A DNA stretch of 64,000 nucleotides from an uncultured bacterium. GTDB taxonomy: Bacteria; Omnitrophota; Omnitrophia; Omnitrophales; Abzuiibacteriaceae. Under the pieces are notes generated by a model. That model did not search any database and was not told where the DNA came from. It saw only the letters and a list, made by a program, of their open reading frames with translations. The position numbers and the translations under genes were made by a program. The first letter of the stretch is position 1. Each line of letters starts with the position of its first letter. Below, one piece after another: positions 16,173 to 31,566 of this stretch. The stretch spans positions 50,481 to 114,480 of the forward strand of contig CAYLXA010000007.1 of NCBI GenBank assembly GCA_964387845.1. The letters are read 5' to 3'.

Positions 16173-18542
16173 TTATTTCTCAGGGATTATTGAAACATTG
16201 TCATACGCCGTATTGGCACGATAACTCTTAAAACCAACACGCCCTGATTGAAATGTGTCATCCTTGACTTTAATTTTATGCCTATCGTTGAGGTAAACCT
16301 GAATTTTTCTTTCGTTGACCGCCACTCTCAATTGATACTTCCTTCCGATTTCAATCAAATTTTCACGTTCCGCCAAATCGACCACTACCCCTTGATGTTT
16401 CTTTTGCAATCGAATTTTATTCTTAGAAGCATCCAAAAGGACTGCATAATAATTATCCGGATCTTGATATCGGAAAAGCAGGCCCGCAACATTGCTTCCA
16501 ACCATAGCTTCATTGCCCAGCTGCACATCAGCTTGAAAAACGTAATTATCCCAATCTTGACGCTCCGACAACGCAATCGCATCCAAGAAATCAATATTCT
16601 TAGCCTTGTAATTAATTTTAAATTGCCTTTCCACCGGCAAGCCAAAACTATACAAGTTTGCATGATGGGCAGAATCGGCAGATCCTTGCCAATATGCGTT
16701 TCTTAAATCCCAATGATACGAATCTTTTCTGACGGCATGCACTTCCATCCGATCCTGATAAATTTCGACGTAATGGTATTCTCCCATATTATTAAAACCA
16801 GTCGTATGAACATAGTAAATGCTATCCAGCTTGCTTAAACCGCTGATATGAGAATGCCCCGCAAATTCCGCGACAACACGCCTGCTAGCCTCCAAAATAT
16901 CTTTAACATCGTTCGAATTCCCGCCTCCCCACCAATAACCATAAGCGTCCCCATCATCACGGACAGCAGCATGCCCGTAATGACAAAACAAAAACGCTTT
17001 CTTGGTTGGATGCGCTGCTAATTCATTTTTTAACCATACTAAATAATTTGAAAAGTCGGAACCGTTTTGCTTTCCCTTAAACATAGTAGCACCGTCTTCG
17101 GCAAGAAATAAAAAATCGCCGAACGTCCAACTATAGGAAAGCTTGTTAGGGCCAAATACTTCTGACCAAAAATGGCCCCTCGGGAATCCCAGCCGAAGAT
17201 CTTCTCCCCAATCGTGATTGCCTAAAACCGGATAATAAGGAACCGAGAGTTGATCCAAAACATTCTTGACGGATTCTAATTCCGACAAAGTACCGTTGTC
17301 CGTCAAATCACCGGTAATTACCACAAAACTTGGCAGCGGAAAATCCCGGCTTTGATTAATATCAGCAACAAAACTCTGAAGATCCTTCAAACTATTGTTA
17401 TCAGTATCACGAATATGGGTATCTGATATCACCGCGAATGAAAAAAGAGGTTTTCCCCGAACTTCGATAGGGATAACCGACCGGTGACTTTCTTCATCCA
17501 GCACAACCGTATAAGTTCCCGCTTCGTTCGCATTCATAGAAAAAGCATCCGGAAATAAAAGTTTACAATCTGATGATAACGAACAATCTGTCAAAGAAAT
17601 CGGCCCATGCACTTTACCCGAAGGACTAATTGCAGACACTTGGGCTTCGCTTAAATTTGCCGTCGATGAAAAATGAAGTGTCGAATGTCCGCCGACATAC
17701 AAATGCGACGGCCTTGCTTTGATTGTTGTGATTGAAAGTACGGTAACTTCATCAAACACAGAAACCCCGCCCTGAGAACCAATCCCTATCGAGCCGCTTG
17801 GGTAAGATTGATCATAAACACGTATATCAGGATCTTGATCTTCGGGCTTGTCGAACCACACTTTAATTTCAGGGCCCACCGCTGAAATCGCGACGGTCGA
17901 CAATTTGCCGTGTTCCGGTTTTGGAACTGAAATACTCGCAAGTCTCCGGTCGAATAAACCATTGGTTCGCGCATATAAATCAAGCGCTCCATCATTGCTC
18001 AGCACTAAAGCGTAAGAGTTGTCATTTTTTTTGCCGGTCATCGTTAAACGAAAATAAACAATGGAAGAATTGAATGGATTTTGGTCAATTTTGCTTCCTA
18101 ATTTTACGCGGATTAGATAATCAGATTGGCTAAACTTGCCTTTTTTGTCGGGAAGCATTAAAGCAAGATTGTGTTTTTTATCATCAAAAAAACATTGTCC
18201 GTCTTTCAGATTGAAAGCACCGCGTTTCTTGGTCCATTGTTTTTTCGTATTCTTCGGATTGCTGAAATCATCATGGAATAATTTTTGTTCATTTTCATTT
18301 TGAACATCCCCATGCCCGGCCCGTATTCCAAAGCTTTCTCCAACTTCCCGTTGCTGATACTGCCCATTAACCGCTACCCAAGCTCCGGAAACAGGGCTCC
18401 ATGCGGTTGAATGGTTGGAAAAATCATCTGAAAATGTTGCATTGACATTCGCAGTTTGTAAACAAAAAATACTTATTAACGCCAGTATCGTACGCACATT
18501 GCGCTCCGCCAAACTTTTAATTTTTTGTTTTACTTTCTTCAT
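16173..18542 (-). CDS. Secreted calcineurin-like metallophosphoesterase flanked by two ConA-like/DUF1080 jelly-roll domains (paralog 1)
   Basis: 789 aa; MPP motifs VISDTH, GDLTDNG, LGNHDW, AGHSH; N- and C-terminal LamG/DUF1080-like domains; signal peptide. Confidence 0.7.
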   Translation of the reverse strand: MKKVKQKIKSLAERNVRTILALISIFCLQTANVNATFSDDFSNHSTAWSPVSGAWVAVNGQYQQREVGESFGIRAGHGDVQNENEQKLFHDDFSNPKNTKKQWTKKRGAFNLKDGQCFFDDKKHNLALMLPDKKGKFSQSDYLIRVKLGSKIDQNPFNSSIVYFRLTMTGKKNDNSYALVLSNDGALDLYARTNGLFDRRLASISVPKPEHGKLSTVAISAVGPEIKVWFDKPEDQDPDIRVYDQSYPSGSIGIGSQGGVSVFDEVTVLSITTIKARPSHLYVGGHSTLHFSSTANLSEAQVSAISPSGKVHGPISLTDCSLSSDCKLLFPDAFSMNANEAGTYTVVLDEESHRSVIPIEVRGKPLFSFAVISDTHIRDTDNNSLKDLQSFVADINQSRDFPLPSFVVITGDLTDNGTLSELESVKNVLDQLSVPYYPVLGNHDWGEDLRLGFPRGHFWSEVFGPNKLSYSWTFGDFLFLAEDGATMFKGKQNGSDFSNYLVWLKNELAAHPTKKAFLFCHYGHAAVRDDGDAYGYWWGGGNSNDVKDILEASRRVVAEFAGHSHISGLSKLDSIYYVHTTGFNNMGEYHYVEIYQDRMEVHAVRKDSYHWDLRNAYWQGSADSAHHANLYSFGLPVERQFKINYKAKNIDFLDAIALSERQDWDNYVFQADVQLGNEAMVGSNVAGLLFRYQDPDNYYAVLLDASKNKIRLQKKHQGVVVDLAERENLIEIGRKYQLRVAVNERKIQVYLNDRHKIKVKDDTFQSGRVGFKSYRANTAYDNVSIIPEK

Positions 18543-18711: not shown

Positions 18712-21087
18712 TCACTTTTTAACTACTACATTGTCATAAAAGGTATGCGCCCGATAACTTTTAAATCCAATTTTTCCTGACGAAAAAGCTGAGTCGGTAG
18801 CTTTAATTTTTAATACATCATTGAGATAAACCTGGATTTCATTTCCTTTTGTCACAATCCGCAATTGATAAACCTTATCCTGCTGAACCAATGTTCGTTC
18901 ACTGCCTAAATCAGCCACTACCCCCTTTTGCTTCTTCTGCAGCTTAATTTCACGCCTTGATTTGTCTAATAAAACCGCATAATAATTGTTGGGGTCGTGA
19001 TAATGAAAAACAAGTCCTGCCACATTATCCCCGACCAACAACTCCTTGCCCAACTTAATATCAGCTTGAAACATATAATCACGCCAATTGCTATTTCTGG
19101 ACACCGAAATCGCATCCAGAAAATCGATGGTTTTTGCGCCGTAATCAATCTTAAATTGTCTTTCAATCGGCAAGCCAAAGCTGTAAAGTTTGGTATTGTG
19201 GGTAGAGTCTGCGGATCCTTGCCAATATGCTTCTGCTAAATCCCAGCGATATGAGCTTTTCTGCACTGCATGCACTTCCATATGATTTTTGTAAATTTCA
19301 ACATAGCGATATTCTCCCATATTATTAAAACCGGTTGTATGAACATAATAAATATTATCTGATTTTTTTAAGCCGCTGACATGAGAATGCCCTGCAAATT
19401 CAGCCACAACACGCCCGCTGGCCTCCAGAATATCCTTAACATCGTTCGAATTCCCGCCGCCCCACCAATAACTAAAAGCGTCTCCATCGTCCCTGATCCT
19501 GGTATGTCCATAATGACAAAATAAAATAACCCGTTTGTTCTTATTTGATGCCAACTGATGCCGCAGCCATTTTGTATAATTTAAAAAATCAGGATCATTC
19601 TTTTTACTACCATACGTTACACTTGAATCTTCAGTCAAAAAAAGAAAATCTCCATAACTCCAACCATAGAAACGTTTATCCGCACCAAAAACATCTGACC
19701 AGTGTTTGCCTTTTGGTGTTTTTCTTCGAAGGTCTTCGACCCAATCATGGTTTCCAAGAATGGGATAATACGGAATTAAAAGCTGATCAAAAGCATCTTT
19801 AACAATTCGCATTTCATCCGTCGTTCCACTATCAGTCAAATCTCCTGTAATTACGACAAAAGCTGGAAGCGGGAAATGCCGGCTCTTATTTGTATCGGAA
19901 ACAAAATCGCGGAGGTCCTGCAGGTCTTGATCGTGATGATCACGGTAATGAGTATCGCTGAGTACCATAAAAGAAAACAAAGGCTTTTCCCTGACTTCAA
20001 GCAATAAAATGGTAGAATTTTGTCTGTCATTGACCGTGACCTTATAAGTTCCTAGTTCATTCAGATTCATGGAAAACGCATCCGGAAACGTTGCAGAACA
20101 ACTTGATTGCCCCAAGCAGTCAGATGGATAAATCGGACCATAGATTTTCCCGGAAGGACTAACGATGGAAACCTGGATAGATTCAAAATCCAGGCTTGAG
20201 CTAAAACGAAGAGTTGTTTTACCGTCTTGATAGAAATGCGGCGGCCATGCTTCAGCTTTCAATACCGGCAGGACTTCGATGTCATCAAATTCAAACATGC
20301 CCCCATAAGCTCCTAAACCGATTGTGCCGGATGGAAACGAGCGATCATGCACAATTATATCCGGAATTTGATCTTCGGTTTTATCAAGCCAAATTTTAAT
20401 TTCAGACCCGACAACCAAAGCAATAACATTATAAGCCTCTTTGTTCTCGGGAATGGCAACGCTAGCCAGCCGGTCACCAAATTTTCCATCAATTTTTTTA
20501 TATAAATCAAGAATTCCTCTTCTCCGGAAAAGCAGAGCATAGGAATTGTCATCTTCCTTATTCGCCATCGTAAGCCGGAAATAAAGAATGGCGGCCCCAA
20601 AATCACCAGGGGCTTTCTTGCACGCAATGCTAGCTTGAATTCGATAGTCAGACCACTGCATAAATTTTTTGTCAGAAGGAATGCTTAAGGCAATGTCGGA
20701 ACCTTTCGTTATATACCGATCATTTTCAATGATAAAAACTCCCCGTTTATTAGCCCACAATTGATTGCTAGTAGTATTACTATTAAAATTATCAAAAAAT
20801 AATGTTTGCGAATCTTTTGGTTCAAATCCTGCGCTTGGATTATCCGGGACTATTTCATAACTGTCGCCCACGGTTCTCTGCTGATATTCTCCATTGATCT
20901 GGACCCAGGCGCCGGACACAGCCTGCCAATGAGCAGGATTTACGGCTGAGAAATCGTCTGAAAAGACAACTGATGTTTGTTCAATATTTTGAGAGCAACC
21001 GGCCGCTAGAGCAAGAATAATCCATACGGCTTGGGTTAATAAATGGTGGGTCACTTTTCCAGAAATTCCCTGAGAGAGTAATTTCAT
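18712..21087 (-). CDS. Secreted lipoprotein: metallophosphoesterase flanked by two ConA-like/DUF1080 domains (paralog 2)
   Basis: 791 aa; same architecture and long identical stretches as 16173..18542 (e.g. YVHTTGFNNMGEY.YVEIY); lipobox LAAGCS. Confidence 0.7.
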   Translation of the reverse strand: MKLLSQGISGKVTHHLLTQAVWIILALAAGCSQNIEQTSVVFSDDFSAVNPAHWQAVSGAWVQINGEYQQRTVGDSYEIVPDNPSAGFEPKDSQTLFFDNFNSNTTSNQLWANKRGVFIIENDRYITKGSDIALSIPSDKKFMQWSDYRIQASIACKKAPGDFGAAILYFRLTMANKEDDNSYALLFRRRGILDLYKKIDGKFGDRLASVAIPENKEAYNVIALVVGSEIKIWLDKTEDQIPDIIVHDRSFPSGTIGLGAYGGMFEFDDIEVLPVLKAEAWPPHFYQDGKTTLRFSSSLDFESIQVSIVSPSGKIYGPIYPSDCLGQSSCSATFPDAFSMNLNELGTYKVTVNDRQNSTILLLEVREKPLFSFMVLSDTHYRDHHDQDLQDLRDFVSDTNKSRHFPLPAFVVITGDLTDSGTTDEMRIVKDAFDQLLIPYYPILGNHDWVEDLRRKTPKGKHWSDVFGADKRFYGWSYGDFLFLTEDSSVTYGSKKNDPDFLNYTKWLRHQLASNKNKRVILFCHYGHTRIRDDGDAFSYWWGGGNSNDVKDILEASGRVVAEFAGHSHVSGLKKSDNIYYVHTTGFNNMGEYRYVEIYKNHMEVHAVQKSSYRWDLAEAYWQGSADSTHNTKLYSFGLPIERQFKIDYGAKTIDFLDAISVSRNSNWRDYMFQADIKLGKELLVGDNVAGLVFHYHDPNNYYAVLLDKSRREIKLQKKQKGVVADLGSERTLVQQDKVYQLRIVTKGNEIQVYLNDVLKIKATDSAFSSGKIGFKSYRAHTFYDNVVVKK

Positions 21088-21527: not shown

Positions 21528-22895
21528 TTAGATTTTCAAATACTGAATCAACGCCTTTCGGCTCTTGCCGAACGAACCCTTCCAAAGCGAAACCAATTGA
21601 TCCGCTTGGGTTTTCCCGGTTTTTAGAACTTCATGCTTCAAAGGCTCCAGGAAAATCCGCTCATCCTGCTCCGCCGCGTTGAAAGACGGATGCTTCTCGA
21701 GGCCTTTTTCGCTTAACTTCACAAGCTGCTTGGCAATATCCAAAATGGGTTTGCCTTTTACTTTTGCCTTCAGGCCTTGAGTTTCGACATCTTGATGAAG
21801 TTTGAGGAAATCTTTCTCGGTCCACTTTTTGATTAATGCGCAGGCTTCAAGCCGCGCTTCATCGTCATACAAAATTCCCTTCCAGAACGCCGCAACCGCC
21901 GGAATCATATGCGAACGCTGGCCGTCAGCGCCGCGGATTTCCAAATACTGCTTGAAACGCGCTTCCGGAAATACGGTGCTTAAATGAAGCGCGAAATCTT
22001 CCTCGGTGGCATGTTCGCCGCGAAAACCTTTTTCGATGAATTTCCGGAATGTTAAATTCGGAATATTAATCCATTTCCCTTTTCGAACAATGAACATCAT
22101 CGGAAGGTCTAATAAATAATTTAAATATGCATCGAATGAAGCTTGCGGGCACAGAAGCTTTTCCAAGAGGCCGGAGCGCTGGGGATCCGTGTAACGCCAA
22201 ATATGGAGCCGTTCGGTCGCAAATCCGCTCGGGCGGCCCTTCGAGAATGAGGAATTGGCAAACATTGCCGATACGATGGACGCGAGGCGCATCGCGATGC
22301 ACATTTTTTCAAACGCGTCATGTTCGCTCGAATAATCAAACGAGACTTGATTGGAAGCCGTCCGCTTCATCATGTCGTGCGCCAGGCGGCCGCGCTTTCC
22401 CAAATATTTTGACATAATGCCGTAACGAAACTTCGGGACCCACTCGATTTTTGCAGTCTGGCTAAAAGGCTGGATTCCGTAAGCCAAAAATTCAATGTGG
22501 CCGATAAACTGCGCGACGGTTTTTAATTGAAAGAAAAAATCATCCAGTTGGGCGCGGATTTGATGAACGCTTTTAACGGGCTCAGCGCTCAGTTCGATTT
22601 GACCTCCGGGTTCCAATGCAACAAAATTAGAACCCTTCTTCAAACCGATCGTATGATCATTTTCGATGATTTTTTCGTAGCCGAATTCATACGCCAGTTC
22701 ATTCAATACTGCTTCAATACCCCGCATTCCCGAATATGGGAGCGCTTCACCGGTTTTATCGTCAACGGCCAACAGTTCGCACTCAACGCCCACCAGCCGC
22801 TCGGAAGTCGGCTTGGCAAAACGGTGAAAATATTGCTGTAAAACATTAACTGATTTAAGGCGCTTTTGATGGTCTGACTGAAGAAATGTGCTCAT
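21528..22895 (-). CDS. gshA: Glutamate--cysteine ligase, plant/proteobacterial GCS2 type
   Basis: 455 aa; VALEPGGQIELSAEP, VPKFRYGIMSKY, HDMMKRTASNQVSFDYSSE, MFANSSF match plant-type gamma-GCS blocks. Confidence 0.75.
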   Translation of the reverse strand: MSTFLQSDHQKRLKSVNVLQQYFHRFAKPTSERLVGVECELLAVDDKTGEALPYSGMRGIEAVLNELAYEFGYEKIIENDHTIGLKKGSNFVALEPGGQIELSAEPVKSVHQIRAQLDDFFFQLKTVAQFIGHIEFLAYGIQPFSQTAKIEWVPKFRYGIMSKYLGKRGRLAHDMMKRTASNQVSFDYSSEHDAFEKMCIAMRLASIVSAMFANSSFSKGRPSGFATERLHIWRYTDPQRSGLLEKLLCPQASFDAYLNYLLDLPMMFIVRKGKWINIPNLTFRKFIEKGFRGEHATEEDFALHLSTVFPEARFKQYLEIRGADGQRSHMIPAVAAFWKGILYDDEARLEACALIKKWTEKDFLKLHQDVETQGLKAKVKGKPILDIAKQLVKLSEKGLEKHPSFNAAEQDERIFLEPLKHEVLKTGKTQADQLVSLWKGSFGKSRKALIQYLKI

Positions 22896-22940
22896 AGATT
22901 TGCTTGTCTGTTCCCTTAATCTCCGCTAAGATTTTACACT

Positions 22941-23900
22941 ATGAAACACTCGAACCGGAAAAATATTTTGTTCGTGATGGACCCGCCGGAGAAAATCCTG
23001 CTTGAATTTGACACCTCTCTGGCCATCATGATGGAAGCGATGGGCCGCAGCCACCGGGTTTTTTACACGGAACCGCATGAATTATCACTGGCCAATGGTG
23101 CATTGAACGGAATGGCGCGTGAGGTCGAGTCTGCCGGCCGAGAATCGGGATTTCGATTTAAGGCAGCACGCCTTTCTTCAATCAGTGAATTTGATGCGGT
23201 TTTGATACGCAAAGACCCGCCCGTTGATATTCACTATTTCAATATGCTTTACTTGCTGGATTATGCCGTGAAAAAAACTTTGGTCATTAATTCCCCTTCC
23301 GGCATCCGCCAAGCCAATGAAAAACTTTTTCCGTTTTACTTCAAAGATTTGATGCCGCCTTCCGTCGCCACATCACAAGAATCTGAGATTCTAAAATTTC
23401 AGGAGCACGTCAATTCCGATGTCATTTTAAAACCGCTCAACCGAAAAGGCGGTGAAGGAATTTTGCTTTTAAAAAAATCGGCTTCGGCAAAATCAAAATC
23501 TGAAAAGATCAAGAAAGTCACACGCGGCGGTTTGGAAACCATTTTGGCCCAGAAATTTATCAAAGCAGGAATCACGGAAGGCGACCGGCGGATTTTATTG
23601 TGGGACGGTGAAATCCTGGGCGCTTTCGGCCGTGTGCCGAAATTCGGCGAATATCGCTCCAATCTGTCGCTTGGCGGATCGATGAAGAAAATCGAAGCAA
23701 CCAAGCAAGAACAAAGAATGGTTCAGAAATTGAGACCGACTTTAAAAAAGCTGGGCCTTATTTTTGTCGGAATCGATATGATTGACGGCTGGATGACCGA
23801 AATCAATGTCACAAGTCCTGCCGGCATTACGGAAATTGACGAACTTTATAATGCACATGTTGAATCCCGCGTTTTAGATTCGTTGGAAAAATGGATGTAG
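22941..23900 (+). CDS. gshB: Glutathione synthetase (prokaryotic ATP-grasp type)
   Basis: 319 aa; blocks ILFVMDP, VLIRKDPP, VINSPSGIRQANEKLF, VILKPL, GEYRSNLSLGG, EINVTSP match E. coli GshB. Confidence 0.8.
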   Translation: MKHSNRKNILFVMDPPEKILLEFDTSLAIMMEAMGRSHRVFYTEPHELSLANGALNGMAREVESAGRESGFRFKAARLSSISEFDAVLIRKDPPVDIHYFNMLYLLDYAVKKTLVINSPSGIRQANEKLFPFYFKDLMPPSVATSQESEILKFQEHVNSDVILKPLNRKGGEGILLLKKSASAKSKSEKIKKVTRGGLETILAQKFIKAGITEGDRRILLWDGEILGAFGRVPKFGEYRSNLSLGGSMKKIEATKQEQRMVQKLRPTLKKLGLIFVGIDMIDGWMTEINVTSPAGITEIDELYNAHVESRVLDSLEKWM

Positions 23901-23917
23901 CCGCAATAAGCCGGAAT

Positions 23918-25735
23918 TTATCTGGCGGCAGTAACGGGAATGGAAGGATTTGCGGGCGAACTAACAACTTTCTTTGCGGCGGTTTCTTTTTGCTGGTTAA
24001 TTTTGTCCGTCTTTAATTTACTCTCCGGCTCTTCATTCGGAAAATAACCCAAGTAACGCAAGCTGTCTTCAATCACCTCCTGAAAAACCGGTGCAGCCAC
24101 GACACCGCCGTAATAAGCGCCGCGCGGCTCATCAATCACAACGAGCATCGCCAACATGGGGTTATCGGCCGGTGCATAGCCCACGAATGAGCCCACATGC
24201 TTAGAATGTGAGTAAGTGCCATTCTCCAGTTTTTGTGATGTGCCGGTTTTCCCCGCAACTTTAATTCCTTTGATGGCGGCAGCTTTTCCGGTTCCGCCCT
24301 CACCCACTACGAGTTGAAGCATTTCATTAATCACTTCTGCTGTTTCCGGCTCCACCACCATTTGCCGGACCATCGGCTCCGTTTGTTTTAAAACAACACC
24401 TTCGTTATCTTTAATTTCACGAATCATAAACGGCCGCACAAGCCGGCCGCCGTTTGCGATCACAGAAACCGCGTTCAACATCTGCATACCGGTCGCCGCA
24501 ACTTCTTGGCCGTACGGAACCGATGTAATAGAAATCTTGGACCATTTATTCAAAGGATGCACAATGCCGTTTACTTCGCCGGGCAAATCAATACCGGTTT
24601 GCTGTCCAAAGCCGAACTTACGGATATATTCATAAAGTCCTTTTTCACCAAGCCGCATCGCGATTTTGACCGTACCGATGTTGCTTGATTTTTGCATGAC
24701 TTGGGGAAATGTGAGCATGCCGTAAGGATGGACGTCGTGGATCACGCGGGATCTTGTGATTTGCCAAGTCCCTTTTTCGCAGTTAAATTGATCCGCAATC
24801 GACACTTTTCCGGCATCAAACGCCGCAGCGGCTGTCACAATTTTAAAAACAGAGCCGGGTTCATAAATATCCGTGATTGCGCGATTACGCCGCTCAGCCG
24901 GGTCGCCCGCGCTGATGCTTTCGTTTGGATTAAACGTGGGCCGGTTCGCCATGGCCAAAATTTCACCCGTATTCGGATTCATCACAACCGCTGAAGCGCC
25001 CTTGGCTTTCCATTTTTTGAAAGCTTCATCGAGGCTTCGCTCTGTCAGATATTGGATATATTGATCGATCGTGAGCGTGATGTTGGCTCCGTCCACCGGC
25101 GGCACCAACTTTTCTTCAAACGCGACGACTTCGCGGCCCAACGCATCCCGCTTCGTGAACCGGTAACCGGTCCGGCCCTTCAGAAATTTATCGTGGATCA
25201 TTTCGATGCCTTCAATGCCCTGATTGTCGATATCACAGAATCCGATGATGTTGGCAAACAACTCGCCGTTCGGATAAAGCCGTTTATTCTCATAAACAAT
25301 CCCGAGCTTCTGGCTCTTCATATCGCGGATGGCGTCGGCTTCTTTTTGGCTTGCGTGGCGCTTGAGCCACACAAACGCTTTGTCGCGTTCGATCCGTGAC
25401 ATGATAAACGCCTTGTCCTTGTCCAGGATTTTTGAGAGTGTGCGCGCCATTTCTTCTTTGTCGCGAATTATACGCGGCACCGCGTAAATCGAAGGAACTT
25501 TGATGTTCATCGCCAGCTCTTTCATGTTCCGGTCGAGGATCCGGCCGCGGTTTTGTTTGATTTCAACCACGAGGCTGTGCTGGCGGTCAACAAGCTGAAG
25601 GAGGGCGTCGCGTTCAATAAAGCTGAGGCGGATAAGCTGGCCCGTAATGAGCAGGAAAATGGCGATGACGCCTATGTGGATAACCCAAAACCTTCTTTCA
25701 GAAATTCGGGCTAGCATATGGGATGCCGGTGTCAA
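23918..25735 (-). CDS. ftsI: Peptidoglycan D,D-transpeptidase (PBP2/FtsI class B PBP)
   Basis: 605 aa; N-terminal TM, PBP dimerisation and transpeptidase domains; position after ftsL in dcw cluster. Confidence 0.85.
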   Translation of the reverse strand: MTPASHMLARISERRFWVIHIGVIAIFLLITGQLIRLSFIERDALLQLVDRQHSLVVEIKQNRGRILDRNMKELAMNIKVPSIYAVPRIIRDKEEMARTLSKILDKDKAFIMSRIERDKAFVWLKRHASQKEADAIRDMKSQKLGIVYENKRLYPNGELFANIIGFCDIDNQGIEGIEMIHDKFLKGRTGYRFTKRDALGREVVAFEEKLVPPVDGANITLTIDQYIQYLTERSLDEAFKKWKAKGASAVVMNPNTGEILAMANRPTFNPNESISAGDPAERRNRAITDIYEPGSVFKIVTAAAAFDAGKVSIADQFNCEKGTWQITRSRVIHDVHPYGMLTFPQVMQKSSNIGTVKIAMRLGEKGLYEYIRKFGFGQQTGIDLPGEVNGIVHPLNKWSKISITSVPYGQEVAATGMQMLNAVSVIANGGRLVRPFMIREIKDNEGVVLKQTEPMVRQMVVEPETAEVINEMLQLVVGEGGTGKAAAIKGIKVAGKTGTSQKLENGTYSHSKHVGSFVGYAPADNPMLAMLVVIDEPRGAYYGGVVAAPVFQEVIEDSLRYLGYFPNEEPESKLKTDKINQQKETAAKKVVSSPANPSIPVTAAR

Positions 25736-27075: not shown

Positions 27076-27420
27076 TTAATGAGCTGATCCGAAACTCTGG
27101 ATCGCTTCCGTTTTGGAGGCAAATGTAATAATGAAGCGCTCAAGGCCCAGCCGGTTAAACGTTTCCGAAATTTCAGGACGCGCAATCACGCGCAGCTCTT
27201 CGCCGCGTTTGGCGTGAATTTTCTGAAGCCGTTCGATGAGGATGCCGATCCCCGCAAAATCAAAACGTTTTGCTTTTGCGAGATCAAGAATGAAGCGCCG
27301 GTTGCGCTGATTAAGATAACGCGAAATGCGGCTTTTCATGTTCACCATCGTCGCTGCATTCAAGTCGCCGTTGCATGTGAGAACGCTGATATTCGATTTA
27401 TGATTTCCGTTTGCGCGCAT
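27076..27420 (-). CDS. STAS-domain protein (anti-sigma-factor antagonist-like) inserted between mraZ and rsmH
   Basis: Start chosen at MRANGNH.. (SD-like AAGGGGG upstream, avoids overlap with mraZ); SpoIIAA-like STAS pattern FILDLAKAKRFDFAGIGIL. Confidence 0.6.
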   Translation of the reverse strand: MRANGNHKSNISVLTCNGDLNAATMVNMKSRISRYLNQRNRRFILDLAKAKRFDFAGIGILIERLQKIHAKRGEELRVIARPEISETFNRLGLERFIITFASKTEAIQSFGSAH

Positions 27421-27424
27421 GATA

Positions 27425-27880
27425 TTAATCCCCCTTTTGTTTTGGCCGTTCAATCAGTTGTTCCGCAAGTTCTTCAAATGAGTTCAGGTTGCCTTTAAAA
27501 AATTCGTCCCACTTCTCTTTCGCCCAAATTTCGATACGGTCCGAGACGCCGATGATGACGACATCCGTCTTAATGTCTCCGTATTCCTTTAAATAAACCG
27601 GAAGTAAAATTCTGCCCTGCTTGTCGCACACCACTTCCACTGCCCCTGAAAAATAAAGCCTGTTGAATTTCCTGGATTCCTGGCGTGTAAACGGGACTTC
27701 GCGGAATTTCTTTTCCTGGTTTTTCCATTCTTCTTCGGTAAACACAAACAAGCAGCGATCGAGGCCGCGCGTCACGAAAAACTTTTCGACGTAGTTCTCT
27801 TTGAAAATTTCCCGGAATTTCGCGGGAATAATCACGCGATCTTTTGCATCTAACGAATGTCTGTATTCACCGTAAAACAT
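27425..27880 (-). CDS. mraZ: Transcriptional regulator MraZ
   Basis: Start at MFYGEYRHSLDAKDRVIIPAKFRE (canonical MraZ N-terminus); the track's longer ORF begins at an upstream GTG. Confidence 0.85.
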   Translation of the reverse strand: MFYGEYRHSLDAKDRVIIPAKFREIFKENYVEKFFVTRGLDRCLFVFTEEEWKNQEKKFREVPFTRQESRKFNRLYFSGAVEVVCDKQGRILLPVYLKEYGDIKTDVVIIGVSDRIEIWAKEKWDEFFKGNLNSFEELAEQLIERPKQKGD

Positions 27881-28080: not shown

Positions 28081-28785
28081 TTATGCTGCAGCGTAGAGAA
28101 TGCGCGAACATTGTTCGCAGATTACGACTTTATCGCGCATTTTGATTTCGTTGAGGAGTTGAGGACGTAACTGCATTTGGCATGCGGGGCAAACTTCGCC
28201 TTCGACTTTCACGAGCGCGACGCCCTGCTTCTTGCTGACAATCTTTTCATAAAGCGACGCGATATCGGGATTCACCTGCTTCATCAATTCTTTTTTCTGT
28301 GCGCTTAATTCTTCGATTTTCTTTTTCGCGTCGTTCATTTGCGATTCGACCACCGCTTTTTTGGTCTGCACTTGCTTTTCAATTTCTTTCAGCCGTTCCT
28401 GCTCGACTTTGATCCTTTGCTGACATTCAGTCACCTGATCCATCAGCTTGATAATTTCCTCTTCGAGCATGGAGTTGTCCGCTTTGATTGCAGAAATTTC
28501 GGTTTGCAGTGAAGAATATTCTTTGTTGGTTTTGACTTGCGTCAACTGGACTTCATATTTTTGGATTGAACTTTCTTTTGTGGCCAAATCGCCTTCTTTT
28601 TGCTTCTGCTTCAGCTGCGCGTTTTTAAACTCAAGTTCAAGCGCCTTCAAATGCGCCTTCTCGGCATCCAGGCCTGCTTCCAGAACCTGGATTTGTTGCG
28701 GCGATTCAAAGAGAACGGACCGGTGGGTATAAATCTGCAAATCAATGGCCTGAACTTGCTCAAGTGTCGGAATATCGTTAATCAT
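28081..28785 (-). CDS. Coiled-coil protein with C-terminal C4 zinc ribbon (COG1579/DUF164-like)
   Basis: 234 aa; long coiled coil then CPACQMQ...CEQCSRILY. Confidence 0.6.
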   Translation of the reverse strand: MINDIPTLEQVQAIDLQIYTHRSVLFESPQQIQVLEAGLDAEKAHLKALELEFKNAQLKQKQKEGDLATKESSIQKYEVQLTQVKTNKEYSSLQTEISAIKADNSMLEEEIIKLMDQVTECQQRIKVEQERLKEIEKQVQTKKAVVESQMNDAKKKIEELSAQKKELMKQVNPDIASLYEKIVSKKQGVALVKVEGEVCPACQMQLRPQLLNEIKMRDKVVICEQCSRILYAAA

Positions 28786-28897: not shown

Positions 28898-29482
28898 CTA
28901 GTTTGATTCGCGCAATTTGCGCAGCTCTGCCCCGAATTGTGTGAATTCCGAGATTTCCTTGGGGCTGAGAGGGTTAATGGACGGCGCGGACCGCTCGCGA
29001 TCTTGCGATCCGGACACTTCCTGGGCCGATATTGACGGATTTGAGTGTTTGTGAAAGTCCCGCACCAAAATAATATCCCGGTCGGCACTTCTCGAAATTG
29101 AAACATGATAAAGCTTGCAATCGAGCTTTAAGAAGCCGAGTTTGGAAGTAAAAGATTCATGAAACTGGGCACCAAATAAATGAACGCCGATTTCTGAATG
29201 TCCTCCGTTGTGGCCGTTGCCGGATTTCGAAGCTCCGAGCCCGGAAAGGGTTTGCAAAAGATCGAGAATAAAATTTTGGTCAATCATTTGATGACTTAGC
29301 GCAAAGACTGACTGTGCCTTGCCGCAAGTATGGAGCTGGGCTGCGATATTCTGAGCCGGGAACGGAAGGTATGCAATAAACCGGCTCTCGGGAAGAACGA
29401 ATTGAACAAGCTGACTTAGAATGCCGTGCGCTTGAGATTCGCTCTCGGAGCGCGGCTGCCAATGCGTGTTGATTGGATTCAT
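28898..29482 (-). CDS. Hypothetical protein, third gene of the ParA-CBM48 operon
   Basis: 194 aa; ATGA start/stop overlap with upstream gene at 29479-29482 supports this frame over the overlapping 28816..29106 ORF. Confidence 0.45.
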   Translation of the reverse strand: MNPINTHWQPRSESESQAHGILSQLVQFVLPESRFIAYLPFPAQNIAAQLHTCGKAQSVFALSHQMIDQNFILDLLQTLSGLGASKSGNGHNGGHSEIGVHLFGAQFHESFTSKLGFLKLDCKLYHVSISRSADRDIILVRDFHKHSNPSISAQEVSGSQDRERSAPSINPLSPKEISEFTQFGAELRKLRESN

Positions 29483-30300
29483 AGCGAATGATGCAGTGAG
29501 TCTTGGCGCAACATTCGCGCCAATATCTTTTTCGACGGCTCCCAGAGTGACACGGTTTCCGGCCCGCCCAGAAAAAGATCCTCGTTAATACGGAGGTCGC
29601 TTCCCTCCATCCAGCCCATGAAACTAATTTCATGCGACATAAATTTGGAAGCGATCCGCGTGAATTTTTCGTATACCAGTTCAGAAATTTTTTCCGATGC
29701 CTTGCCGTCAACCAAAAGCAGAAAATGAAGCGACGGATTCCACTCCAGGCAAGCGCGAAAACTTTGATAGGCCGATACGAGACTGTCGGCTGAATCGGTT
29801 TTCACATGCAAAATGACATAATCCAAAATTTGAAGCAAATTTTTCTCATATTCGAACATGGAGATAGGATCTATAAAAATTCCCATACTGCCTAAACGTT
29901 CGGTGTTTTGTCCCGCCTCGTGCCGATCAACCGGCTGAAGATGCAGTGCTTCCTGAATCTGAGCATCCGATAGAAACGCCTGCCGCACATTTGGGTGCTG
30001 AATACGCGTAATCGATGGCGAATATTGACCGATGGTCGCTAAATAGAGATCGCCAAATAATTGCCGAAACTTGGTCACAAATAAATGATGCGATAAAAGC
30101 TCTTCTTGGGATCCAAATGGCAGGATGCTCATACATCGAACCATATTTTCACCAGCTGCTCGCGGTGTCAGCAGTGCAGACGAGATCATGGCCGGAATAT
30201 GCTGCGCAGGCGCGTGCGCAGAAGCTTCATGAGCCGAAAAAAGAGCCGGCGAAACGTCGTTGAGGCCTCTTTTTAACCTTTTTTCATCTGACATAAACAA
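29479..30300 (-). CDS. Degenerate ParA/MinD-like protein lacking Walker A
   Basis: 273 aa; C-terminal two thirds align in pattern with MinD/ParA (..FIDPIS.., ..LHFLLLVDGKASEKI.., ..FMGWMEGSDLRINEDL..), but N-terminus has no KGGxGKT P-loop. Confidence 0.4.
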   Translation of the reverse strand: MFMSDEKRLKRGLNDVSPALFSAHEASAHAPAQHIPAMISSALLTPRAAGENMVRCMSILPFGSQEELLSHHLFVTKFRQLFGDLYLATIGQYSPSITRIQHPNVRQAFLSDAQIQEALHLQPVDRHEAGQNTERLGSMGIFIDPISMFEYEKNLLQILDYVILHVKTDSADSLVSAYQSFRACLEWNPSLHFLLLVDGKASEKISELVYEKFTRIASKFMSHEISFMGWMEGSDLRINEDLFLGGPETVSLWEPSKKILARMLRQDSLHHSL

Positions 30301-30321
30301 TCAGCTCCTGTTACTTAAGAT

Positions 30322-31566
30322 TTATAAAACACGGAGGACAGAATTTACGCCGCCGTAACGATTTTCTTCAAGCTCAGAATGAGTGGGATCCGTCTTCCAT
30401 TCCCCGTCCACCAAAAATTTATACCGGTAGGTGCCGGACGGCATCGAAATCACTTTCTGCCATGAATCCGGCATTCCTTCCGCCTTTGCCATGGCCTCGG
30501 GAACCCAGTGATTAAAATCGCCGGCAATTAATACTTCGCGCGCTTCTTTACTTTCATAGGAAAATAAAATACCGCCCAAAACGGGGCAAGGCGAGCCGGC
30601 ATTTTGCGTTAATGTTTCAGTCTCGGATGCCTGTGTTTGCAACGCGGCCTGGCCTTCCGGAGCGCTCGATTCCCCTGCAGCCGGCTCAAGAACAGGCTCC
30701 GGCTCAGCCTTCGATAACTCTGAAAATGTTTCCCGAACCGCTTCGCCGTTGGCAGGTGCGCCCGGCTTTTCTCCGTTCACTTCCTCCGGCGCAATGGCAA
30801 TGCGGATTCCGCGCTCAATGACTTCAATCGCCAAATTCATATAATCCTGAAAACCGGTTGCTTTGCGGTCATAATCCACGATACTTTTTCCGGCAGCAGC
30901 CGCTTCTCTGAGCTTAATATTTTCGCGGATATGATTCGTGAAGGTTTTTTCCTTGAAATGATGTTTCACCTCACCGAGAACTTCCTGAGCCAGCTTGATT
31001 CTCGATTCATAGCGTGTCACCAGTGCATGAACTTCGACACTTTTTCCCGTAATTTGGCGGAGTGATTCAATCGTTTCGAATATCTTTGCCAGGCCATGCA
31101 ATGAAAAAAATGAAGGTTCGATCGGAATAATGACTTCGCCGGATGCGCGGAGGGCATTAAAAGTTAAAATGCCCAAATTCGGCGGGCAATCGATAATGAC
31201 AAACTCGTAATTGGAAGTAATCTGATTGAGTTGATTGAGCAGCTTATTTTCTCTGCCCGGCACACCGGCCAGCTCCTGCTCGATAACGCTCAAAACCACA
31301 TGGGAAGGAACTAGATGAAGGAAAGTGCTCACGTTTACCAGCGCTTCGGAAATACCGGACGCTTGGTCGGATGATTTCAACAAATCATACGCCGTTCTGC
31401 TCAAGGATTCGGCCTTCACGCCAAGCCCGCAGGTAGCATGGCCTTGCGGATCCAAATCGATCAGCAGAACGCGCTTCTGTACAAATGCCAATGCAGCCGC
31501 CAAATTAATCGCGGTGGTGGTCTTACCGCAGCCACCCTTCTGATTGGCGATGGCGATTACTCTCAT
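30322..31566 (-). CDS. ParA/Soj-family ATPase fused to C-terminal AMPK-beta/CBM48-like glycogen-binding domain
   Basis: 414 aa; deviant Walker A NQKGGCGKTTTAINLAAAL; Pro/Ala/Glu-rich linker; C-terminus VLIAGDFNHW...SGTYRYKFLVDGEWKTDP...GGVNSVLRVL matches the AMPK beta GBD/CBM48 pattern (SGSFNNW...YKFFVDGQW..DP...GTVNNIIQV). Confidence 0.75.
   Translation of the reverse strand: MRVIAIANQKGGCGKTTTAINLAAALAFVQKRVLLIDLDPQGHATCGLGVKAESLSRTAYDLLKSSDQASGISEALVNVSTFLHLVPSHVVLSVIEQELAGVPGRENKLLNQLNQITSNYEFVIIDCPPNLGILTFNALRASGEVIIPIEPSFFSLHGLAKIFETIESLRQITGKSVEVHALVTRYESRIKLAQEVLGEVKHHFKEKTFTNHIRENIKLREAAAAGKSIVDYDRKATGFQDYMNLAIEVIERGIRIAIAPEEVNGEKPGAPANGEAVRETFSELSKAEPEPVLEPAAGESSAPEGQAALQTQASETETLTQNAGSPCPVLGGILFSYESKEAREVLIAGDFNHWVPEAMAKAEGMPDSWQKVISMPSGTYRYKFLVDGEWKTDPTHSELEENRYGGVNSVLRVL

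Follow-up and report, generated by a model that had tools for sequence, protein, structure and literature searches.

We found that a three-gene module in a 64-kb stretch of DNA from an uncultured Omnitrophota bacterium (contig CAYLXA010000007.1 of assembly GCA_964387845.1; the window is this whole stretch, and all coordinates are window positions) has, very probably, the anatomy of a ParA-type ATPase paired with its own activator. The ATPase, here called ParA-CBM, ends in an AMPK-beta-type domain of the carbohydrate-binding module (CBM) family CBM48, which makes it likely that the protein carries an alpha-glucan-binding module. Its partner, open reading frame 2 (ORF2), presents a ParB-like peptide in front of a P-loop-less MinD/FlhG-fold body and is followed by a third gene, ORF3. 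The best-supported function that we infer for this module is positioning of glycogen or its tethering to the nucleoid. All three ORFs are encoded on the minus strand, head to tail and in the order ParA-CBM, ORF2, ORF3, with the following features:

30322..31566, minus strand: ParA-CBM gene, 414 amino acids plus stop, with a GGGGAG Shine-Dalgarno-like sequence 5' of the ATG
30802..31566, minus strand: Soj-type ParA ATPase domain, amino acids 1-255, with NQKGGCGKT, Walker A' D37/D39 and Walker B D126
30592..30801, minus strand: Pro/Ala/Glu-rich linker, amino acids 256-325, gapped in the family alignment
30325..30591, minus strand: AMPK-beta-type CBM48 domain, amino acids 326-414, with an AMPK1_CBM match
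29479..30294, minus strand: ORF2, 271 amino acids from ATG, comprising N-terminal peptide, disordered linker and P-loop-less MinD/FlhG-fold domain
30238..30282, minus strand: ParB-like, putatively ParA-binding peptide KRLKRGLNDVSPALF in the disordered N-terminus of ORF2
29485..30141, minus strand: degenerate MinD/FlhG-like domain (SIMIBI P-loop NTPase fold) of ORF2, without Walker A, with the Asp at the Walker B position kept
28898..29482, minus strand: ORF3, 194 amino acids, with an ATGA overlap with ORF2
28910..28969, minus strand: C-terminal helix of ORF3, LSPKEISEFTQFGAELRKLR, whose pattern L[ST]xxE[LI]xx[FL]xxLxxEL[RK] recurs across loci

A first-pass annotation of this DNA had described a complete deviant-Walker-A ParA/Soj domain, a C-terminal AMPK-beta-like domain and an ATGA coupling of ORF2 to the 194-residue ORF3, and all three descriptions were borne out. 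It had overlooked the conserved N-terminal ParB-like peptide of ORF2.

Nearly all representatives of the ORF2 family begin with [KR][KR]-L-K-R-G-L-x-D-[ILV]-S-P-L-F. Among 82 representatives, the motif positions were kept as L in 82, R in 80, G in 82, L in 81, [ILV] in 82, S in 81 and F in 77, and this peptide is the most conserved part of ORF2, though it lies within a predicted disordered region. In loci of other lineages, the gene after ParA-CBM begins with K(K/R)LGRGLxD[IV]SH[IL]FLS. The N-terminus of Thermus Spo0J (1VZ0) reads MSRKPSGLGRGLEALL, and LGRGL is literally common to it and to these sister loci. A phmmer search of the PDB with the 21-residue peptide gave no match, the query being too short. 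In ParB, the motif that binds ParA is LxRxLxxLI, and a 20-mer peptide is enough to stimulate ParA when DNA is present, more strongly when two peptides are juxtaposed (PMC12462528). The ORF2 peptide matches the ParB motif positions L11, R13, L15 and L18 in register.

The receiving side of this interface can be traced in ParA-CBM. We mapped the peptide-contacting ParA residues named in the same study (PMC12462528) through the alignment with 8RAY (offset +19), and counted conservation for these and all other ParA-CBM residues over 121 family members, down to about 43% identity. Y81 corresponds to Y60 (118/121) and E117 to E96 (121/121), E82 is represented by D61, acidic in 105/121, and L150, G151 and L152 correspond to L131, G132 and I133, of which the glycine is kept in 121/121 and the two flanking positions are aliphatic. 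Six of the eight contacting residues are thus conserved, the equivalents of D110 and L192 being the two that are not. Judged by these residues, both halves of a ParA-activator interface are present, and since the ParB-like peptide is accompanied by a mostly retained pocket, ORF2 probably acts as the ATPase activator of ParA-CBM.

Peptide and ATPase also go together in genomes. A strict regular expression for the motif matched 27 of the 3,748 ORFs of the fetched loci, as against none in shuffled sets, and 26 of these 27 ORFs lay directly downstream of ParA-CBM. When metagenomes were scanned with the back-translated motif alone, ParA-CBM was found directly upstream of the ORF2-type gene in 20 of 20 loci, and an ORF3-type gene came next in 13 of the 13 loci whose downstream sequence extends to at least 1.7 kb. 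Co-occurrence of the three genes, proposed earlier as a check, therefore holds far beyond the source genome. From its peptide, ORF2 appears to work like the N-terminus of ParB, yet it is no ParB. In Desulfobacterales-labelled metagenome-assembled genomes (MAGs), a partner of only 182-187 amino acids begins with MAKKSLGRGLD[DE]ISDIFLS (L035:6082-6645, L037:6082-6645, L046:4970-5524, L053:6091-6639); its body is not matched by the profile of either ORF2 or ORF3 and represents a third scaffold with the same peptide.

The ATPase domain of ParA-CBM matched the Pfam families AAA_31 (E=1.5e-54, amino acids 1-177) and CbiA (E=1.8e-19). Amino acids 2-252 aligned in phmmer searches of the PDB with ParA of M. 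xanthus (8RAY, E=6e-54), Soj of T. thermophilus (1WCV, E=2e-47) and HpSoj (E=1e-41), the McdA structures being distant matches only (E about 1e-15). The protein stays under the NCBIfam ParA_partition equivalog cut-off, with 127.7 against 180 bits, and has more than 120 full-length homologue clusters. Its catalytic residues are kept, K10 in 119/121, K15 in 120/121 and D37, D39 and D126 each in 121/121 members, and the canonical signature lysine is present in the Walker A motif. In Soj of B. subtilis, R189, equivalent to Thermus R182, is required for non-specific DNA binding (PMC5393062). This arginine aligns to R189 of ParA-CBM, where Arg occurs in 104/121 members, and by analogy with Soj, ParA-CBM would bind DNA non-specifically. 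The length of the linker that follows is bimodal across the family, either 25 or 48-150 amino acids, and these lengths would fit a flexible tether joining the ATPase to the CBM. As a separate observation, the Walker A motif (31519..31545) reads KGGCGKT, with Cys in 120/121 members at a position where ParA/MinD proteins usually have Val or Ile; redox sensitivity is one possible meaning.

ORF2 had been placed at 29479..30300 with 273 amino acids. The TAA stop of ParA-CBM is followed by AGGAG and, 10 nt later, by an ATG at 30294, and the 271-residue protein read from this ATG is identical to a database protein (P0121). The true start is therefore ATG 30294 and not the TTG at 30300 that the ORF finder had given. 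ORF2 matched no Pfam or NCBIfam family, ParB included. An exhaustive profile search assembled 101 representative clusters at E<=1e-3, about 250-315 amino acids long, and an 83-sequence profile of the family matched FlhG (4RZ2, E=5e-10, via the Walker B strand) and FleN (E=6.5e-4) in the PDB. The AlphaFold2 model (predicted local distance difference test score, pLDDT, 85; predicted template-modelling score 0.81) shows residues 1-50 as disordered (pLDDT about 50) and residues 54-272 as an alpha/beta domain, with only about three residues between strand 1 and helix 1 and a confidently predicted C-terminal helix (residues 251-272). A real P-loop was found in none of about 100 ORF2 representatives, the sole regular-expression match (P0188, residue 228) being spurious. 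This absence makes the body, by its profile, a MinD/FlhG-derived pseudo-ATPase outside the active MinD/FlhG family. The first-pass annotation was thus right about a P-loop-less MinD/ParA fold and mistaken in seeing only its C-terminal two thirds, as the fold spans the whole folded domain. A recent duplication of the neighbouring ParA was considered as the origin of ORF2 and rejected: hhalign of both families was not significant, and FlhG and FleN are closer. The earlier idea of a pseudo-ATPase partner calls for refinement: a ParA:pseudo-ParA nucleotide-sandwich heterodimer is less likely than action through an N-terminal ParB-like activating peptide. ORF2 is FlhG/MinD-like and not a copy of its neighbour.

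ORF3 consists of a fast-evolving alpha/beta domain, a disordered linker and a conserved C-terminal helix, which is a candidate interaction peptide. Its family was recovered by jackhmmer in 18 loci, and the gene in second place downstream in LGRGL-type loci turned out to be a homologue of ORF3 (hhalign 96.4%, E=1.2e-9, 185 columns); the three-gene module thus reaches beyond the window's clade. An AlphaFold2 model of ORF3 built on a 4-sequence alignment reached a pLDDT of 40, too low for the model to be of use. We rejected ORF3 as a NucS-like PD-(D/E)xK domain, as NucS_C matched 1 of 24 members (E=0.002) and the 24-sequence profile had no PDB match. In one MAG labelled Acidobacteria UBA6911 (L028:6084-6734), an LARGL peptide is fused straight to an ORF3-type domain without a MinD-like domain, a Rosetta-stone-type hint which suggests that ORF3 and the peptide function together in one complex. 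Profile searches of Pfam, NCBIfam and the PDB revealed no ParB/Srx, helix-turn-helix (HTH) or other recognizable DNA-binding domain in ORF2 or ORF3, nor any relation of either to a solved McdB.

The C-terminal domain of ParA-CBM matched AMPK1_CBM (PF16561) at amino acids 340-413 with E=3.2e-14 and 53.3 bits, the gathering score being 26.8, and the CBM of AMPK beta1 (1Z0N) with E=9e-10 in phmmer; the match to CBM_48 (PF02922) was weak (E=0.002, 18.8 bits against a threshold of 22.4). AMPK loses glycogen binding with the substitution W100G or K126Q and binds glycogen more weakly with W133L or G147R (PMC6274970). The equivalents of these four residues are nearly invariant in the family: W354 in 121/121, K383 in 118/121, W390 in 119/121 and G405 in 120/121 members.

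Genes related to alpha-glucan recur near ParA-CBM in other subfamilies. In at least nine loci of the type called context C below, ParA-CBM has a GH57 gene (PF03065, E=2e-70) upstream on its own strand, and stand-alone AMPK1_CBM proteins (E=1e-13 to 1e-16) are encoded within about 2.5 kb of ParA-CBM in L043, L055 and L056. In four further loci, a protein of 623-627 amino acids with DUF4912 and a glucodextranase-B-like part carries the putative ParA-binding peptide itself, as RKKLGKGLEDISTLFLS (L096:5480-7351, L034:8725-10608, L091:4587-5642, L109:2-460). The protein has a Lys-rich N-terminal region, about 330 residues of histone-H1-like Lys/Ala/Val-rich repeats and the peptide as an embedded copy, and its gene stands about 2.7 kb after the ORF2-type copy. 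Across this lineage the flanks of the motif drift, the motif itself being letter-perfect. In L034 and L096, where enough sequence is available, the DUF4912 gene is directly upstream of GH57, and the complete GH57 protein of L096 aligns end to end with both models of GH57 1,4-alpha-glucan branching enzymes (E=8e-99 and 2.5e-90), below their equivalog cut-offs. The DUF4912 protein is thus a possible second client of the ATPase; the literature searched held nothing relevant on DUF4912. Of the Omnitrophota genera treated in PMC8542988, most are reported to encode glycogen synthesis.

At least 575 species representatives carry the ParA-CBM fusion. Candidatus Omnitrophica/Omnitrophota account for all of the closest named homologues, and the best 80 matches bear mostly Omnitrophota titles, the others being labelled Phycisphaerae/Planctomycetota, Desulfobacterales/Thermodesulfobacteriota, Acidobacteria, Zixibacteria, Eisenbacteria, Glassbacteria and Auribacter; all taxon names are MAG labels as deposited. 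Publicly, the module proteins go by such generic names as 'AAA family ATPase', 'hypothetical protein' and 'chromosome partitioning protein'. An ORF2-type or motif-bearing partner follows directly in 36 of the 70 ParA-anchored loci with enough downstream sequence, and an ORF3-type gene was detectable in 21 of 31 partner-positive loci with at least 1.7 kb downstream.

We distinguished three genomic contexts. In context A, to which the window's clade belongs, the gene order ParA-CBM, ORF2, ORF3, a CT398-like gene, mraZ, a STAS gene, rsmH, ftsL and ftsI is invariant, and the CT398-like gene and the division and cell wall (dcw) genes from mraZ on are kept downstream although upstream genes vary. 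Context B comprises LGRGL-type three-gene modules without dcw genes. In context C, ParA-CBM has no ORF2-type neighbour and stands either in a porin-GH57 cluster or near a LOG-like gene and gidA. The former cluster is tight and encodes, on the same strand, an Alginate_exp-type porin, GH57 (about 512 amino acids), a protein of about 190 amino acids, ParA-CBM, a small DUF4870 membrane protein and a Lys-rich protein of about 135 amino acids (L063:2769-6815, L052:2804-6894, L048:2780-6861, L065:2190-5376 and about ten more loci). Its protein of about 190 amino acids has the N-terminus MDKKEIYEHLAKIYLDAS, followed by a Lys-rich stretch and a transmembrane helix; this protein, or else the Lys-rich one, might serve as the activator instead of ORF2. 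In L042, L051, L064, L076, L079 and L087 (for example L042:5001-8787), the genes after ParA-CBM are a LOG/lysine-decarboxylase-like gene and gidA/mnmG; canonical parA genes usually stand in an origin-proximal neighbourhood such as that of gidA/mnmG. At L068:5001-6900, a family ParA of 321 amino acids with an unrelated C-terminal tail in place of the CBM precedes an ORF2-type gene with KLGRGLAEVS, so the ParA-ORF2 pair can exist without the glucan module.

Two other identities were tried and dismissed. A plasmid partition protein does not fit, as plasmid matches cover the ATPase domain only and the fusion is absent among 72,556 plasmids; for a defence system, PADLOC gave P-loop and coiled-coil noise only. 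A ParB-like ORF was absent from the window and from loci L001-L088, and no parS-like sites above chance were present in the window.

On this basis we propose that the module tethers or distributes glycogen, or glycogen-bound proteins, on the nucleoid in the manner of a ParA/MinD-type system, a mechanism that we hold, taken as a whole, to be slightly less probable than its contrary. ParA-CBM would dimerize on ATP via its signature lysine and bind nucleoid DNA non-specifically via Arg189/Lys220-type residues. The CBM48 domain, on its tether of 25-150 amino acids, would bind glycogen, and each dimer would thereby link a glycogen particle, or enzymes bound to glycogen, with the nucleoid. ORF2 would activate the ATPase, the arginine of its peptide being set against the Tyr60/Glu96 site, and so bring about ATP hydrolysis and release from DNA, while the ORF2 body and ORF3 would probably serve as a scaffold or dimeriser that presents paired peptides and/or binds the cargo or a cellular landmark. 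Repeated cycles of binding and release would spread glycogen over the nucleoid, and both daughters would inherit it.

Several observations weigh against this proposal. Where the window's clade is concerned, it is the dcw cluster, and not glycogen genes, to which the module is locked, and the 64 kb of the window hold no GH57, DUF4912 or other glycogen gene and no second motif-bearing gene. It is in other subfamilies, and in few independent lineages, that GH57 and DUF4912 genes are associated with ParA-CBM, the four DUF4912 loci being one lineage (88-92% ParA identity), and about half of the ParA-CBM loci lack an ORF2-type neighbour. The equivalent of AMPK beta1 N150 is Asn in the window protein and Asp in 107/121 members. 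To our knowledge, moreover, a design in which the ATPase and not its partner bears the cargo-binding module departs from every characterized ParA ratchet, so that the dynamics may be tethering and not directed transport. The glycogen positioning or segregation system put forward in the first-pass annotation thus gains from the conserved glycogen contacts, the GH57 and CBM48 neighbours and the DUF4912 peptide, and loses from the dcw linkage of the window's clade. A CBM48/E-set match, co-occurrence of the three genes and a ParA/MinD fold of ORF2, whose absence that annotation had named as counting against it, were all found.

One of the two main rival readings is a spatial regulator of division or the cell cycle, an analogue of MipZ, PomXYZ or MinD. 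The ParA and its activator would then place the divisome or set its timing, and the CBM would be a sensor or sink of nutrient reserves coupling division to glycogen status. The order of genes from ParA-CBM to ftsI is invariant in the window's clade even when the upstream genes change, the closest fold relatives of ORF2 are the MinD-family site-determining proteins FlhG and FleN, and the dcw genes including ftsZ are conserved in Omnitrophota (PMC12283558). However, the dcw linkage is confined to one clade, LGRGL-type modules and ParA-CBM elsewhere are not near dcw genes, the neighbourhood themes outside the window's clade are alpha-glucan genes and not division genes, and we could identify no FtsZ-interacting feature; we regard such a regulator as unlikely. 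Somewhat less probable still is the other main rival, a non-canonical partition of chromosome or other DNA, with ParA-CBM as the Soj of its lineage, ORF2 and ORF3 as the adaptor to centromere or cargo in place of ParB, and the CBM in an accessory role. Chromosomal ParAs are roughly as similar to the ATPase as they are to one another (8RAY, E=6e-54), the partner peptide is of the ParB type, gidA/mnmG lies just downstream in six loci as in an oriC-type neighbourhood, ParB is absent from the first 88 fetched loci, and one ORF3-type member has the weak NucS_C-like match (E=0.002). Yet 23 of 24 members do not bear out the NucS hint, neither ORF2 nor ORF3 shows a ParB/Srx, HTH or other recognizable DNA-binding domain, no parS-like site rises above chance in the window, and partition leaves unexplained a CBM with conserved sugar-contact residues (W354, K383, W390 and G405, for which our overall figure is at least 98%).

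A role of the CBM48-like domain in protein-protein contact, be it to ORF2/ORF3 or to an enzyme, or in binding another glycan, with the module localizing some other machine as in the case of BcsQ and cellulose synthase, seems the least probable of these alternatives, and indeed improbable. It would draw on a BcsQ-family similarity (E=1.3e-13), on the N150 equivalent being mostly Asp, and on the CBM-less ParA of L068, whose ORF2-type partner indicates that the pair can work without the CBM. The BcsQ match, however, reflects the generic ATPase-domain likeness of every ParA/MinD member, alpha-glucan enzymes and further CBM48 proteins are what recurs in the neighbourhoods, and the AMPK beta1 residues proven by mutagenesis to matter for glycogen binding are almost invariant in the family.

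The surroundings of the module in the window can be summarized as follows. Upstream lie obg, proB, proA, nadD and two CNNM/CBS genes; downstream are a CT398/CdsZ-like coiled-coil zinc-ribbon gene (28081..28785, minus strand; CT398_CC E=1.4e-13, Zn_ribbon_9 E=2e-11), mraZ, a STAS gene, rsmH, ftsL and ftsI. The CT398/CdsZ-like gene, a clade-specific neighbour between the module and mraZ, is probably not a core part of the module; it follows ORF3 in the dcw-linked clade only and is absent from LGRGL-type loci. The STAS-domain (anti-sigma-antagonist-like) gene (27076..27453) keeps its place between mraZ and rsmH throughout the related Omnitrophota loci and makes an unusual insertion at the head of the dcw cluster. 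This cluster (21528..25735 region) ends after ftsI with no mur genes next; there follow a divergent gshB (22941..23900, plus strand) and a gene for a GCS2-type glutamate-cysteine ligase (21528..22895). Two tandem paralogous genes of about 790 codons (16173..18542 and 18712..21087) encode proteins with a calcineurin-like metallophosphoesterase domain and a C-terminal 3-keto-disaccharide-hydrolase-like domain.

ParA/MinD ATPases are the general means by which bacteria place plasmids, chromosomes, carboxysomes, chemoreceptor arrays and division sites. We know of no positioning or inheritance machinery in bacteria for glycogen, the most widespread carbon store, and in the literature searched we found neither a characterized system of this layout nor any ParA/MinD ATPase that has a CBM or takes glycogen as cargo, in line with the first-pass annotation, which had recognized none. 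Our most far-reaching claim is a joint one: that this would be the first ParA/MinD-type system with a storage polysaccharide as cargo, in which the ATPase grips glycogen by its fused CBM48 domain and tethers and distributes it on the nucleoid, a MinD/FlhG-derived pseudo-ATPase with a ParB peptide, as an activator of a new class, cycles the ATPase, and DUF4912 clients use the same peptide. We advance it tentatively, as rather more likely to fail in some part than to hold throughout. In a bolder variant, the glucan surface and not DNA may be the matrix on which the ATPase patterns itself. If true, the claim would add a new class of cargo as well as a new design, one in which the motor itself binds the cargo and the activator is built from a dead MinD fold. 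Regardless of the cargo, a ParB-like activation motif appears to have been transplanted onto unrelated scaffolds, and the motif offers a search handle for clients of orphan ParAs. The predicted peptide-pocket pair, the CBM and the DNA-binding site are testable with three small recombinant proteins, although most of the hosts are uncultured.

Among known systems, the module shares with ParABS (Soj/Spo0J; ParA-ParB of M. xanthus, 8RAY) a deviant Walker A ATPase, the arginine for non-specific DNA binding, the peptide pocket and a partner that is encoded immediately downstream and starts with a disordered L[G/K]RGLxx[ILV] peptide. Unlike ParB, ORF2 has no CTPase or HTH fold, and no parS was found in the window; here the ATPase has a C-terminal CBM48 domain, the body of the partner is a P-loop-less MinD/FlhG fold, and a third gene is coupled to it. 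Unlike FlhG and FleN (4RZ2, 5J1J), ORF2 lacks the deviant Walker A motif and cannot be such an ATPase, and it has a ParB-like peptide and no flagellar context. The likeness to PomXYZ, MipZ and MinCDE lies in a ParA/MinD ATPase whose activators act via short N-terminal peptides, two activators per ATPase in the case of PomXYZ, and in the genomic link to division genes in the window's clade; those systems are without a CBM, the dcw linkage is clade-specific, and ORF2 and ORF3 have no homology to PomX, PomY, MinE or MinC. With the CBM of AMPK beta, SEX4 and LSF1, ParA-CBM shares the family and the W100/K126/W133/G147 equivalents, those proteins being examples of a regulator or enzyme tethered to glycogen. 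Here, in contrast, the domain is bacterial, is fused to ParA and not to a kinase scaffold or phosphatase, and has mostly Asp at the N150 equivalent.

In concept, the proposed role comes close to McdAB, as well as to ParC/ParP and PpfA, in which a nucleoid-bound ParA-type ATPase distributes a cytoplasmic cargo other than DNA. The adaptor of McdAB has a disordered N-terminal region that is needed for interaction with the ATPase (PMC6582323). In contrast to the McdA of that study, which lacks the signature lysine, ParA-CBM has it; McdB and not McdA binds the cargo, whereas here the cargo-binding module would sit on the ATPase; and ORF2 and ORF3 have no sequence relationship to McdB. These differences, together with the lack of a CTPase or HTH fold and of a P-loop in ORF2, set the module apart from ParB, from active MinD/FlhG and from McdAB. 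By its sequence features, then, the module is best classed as a variant of the ParA/MinD positioning systems, one that would work along the lines of ParABS and McdAB.

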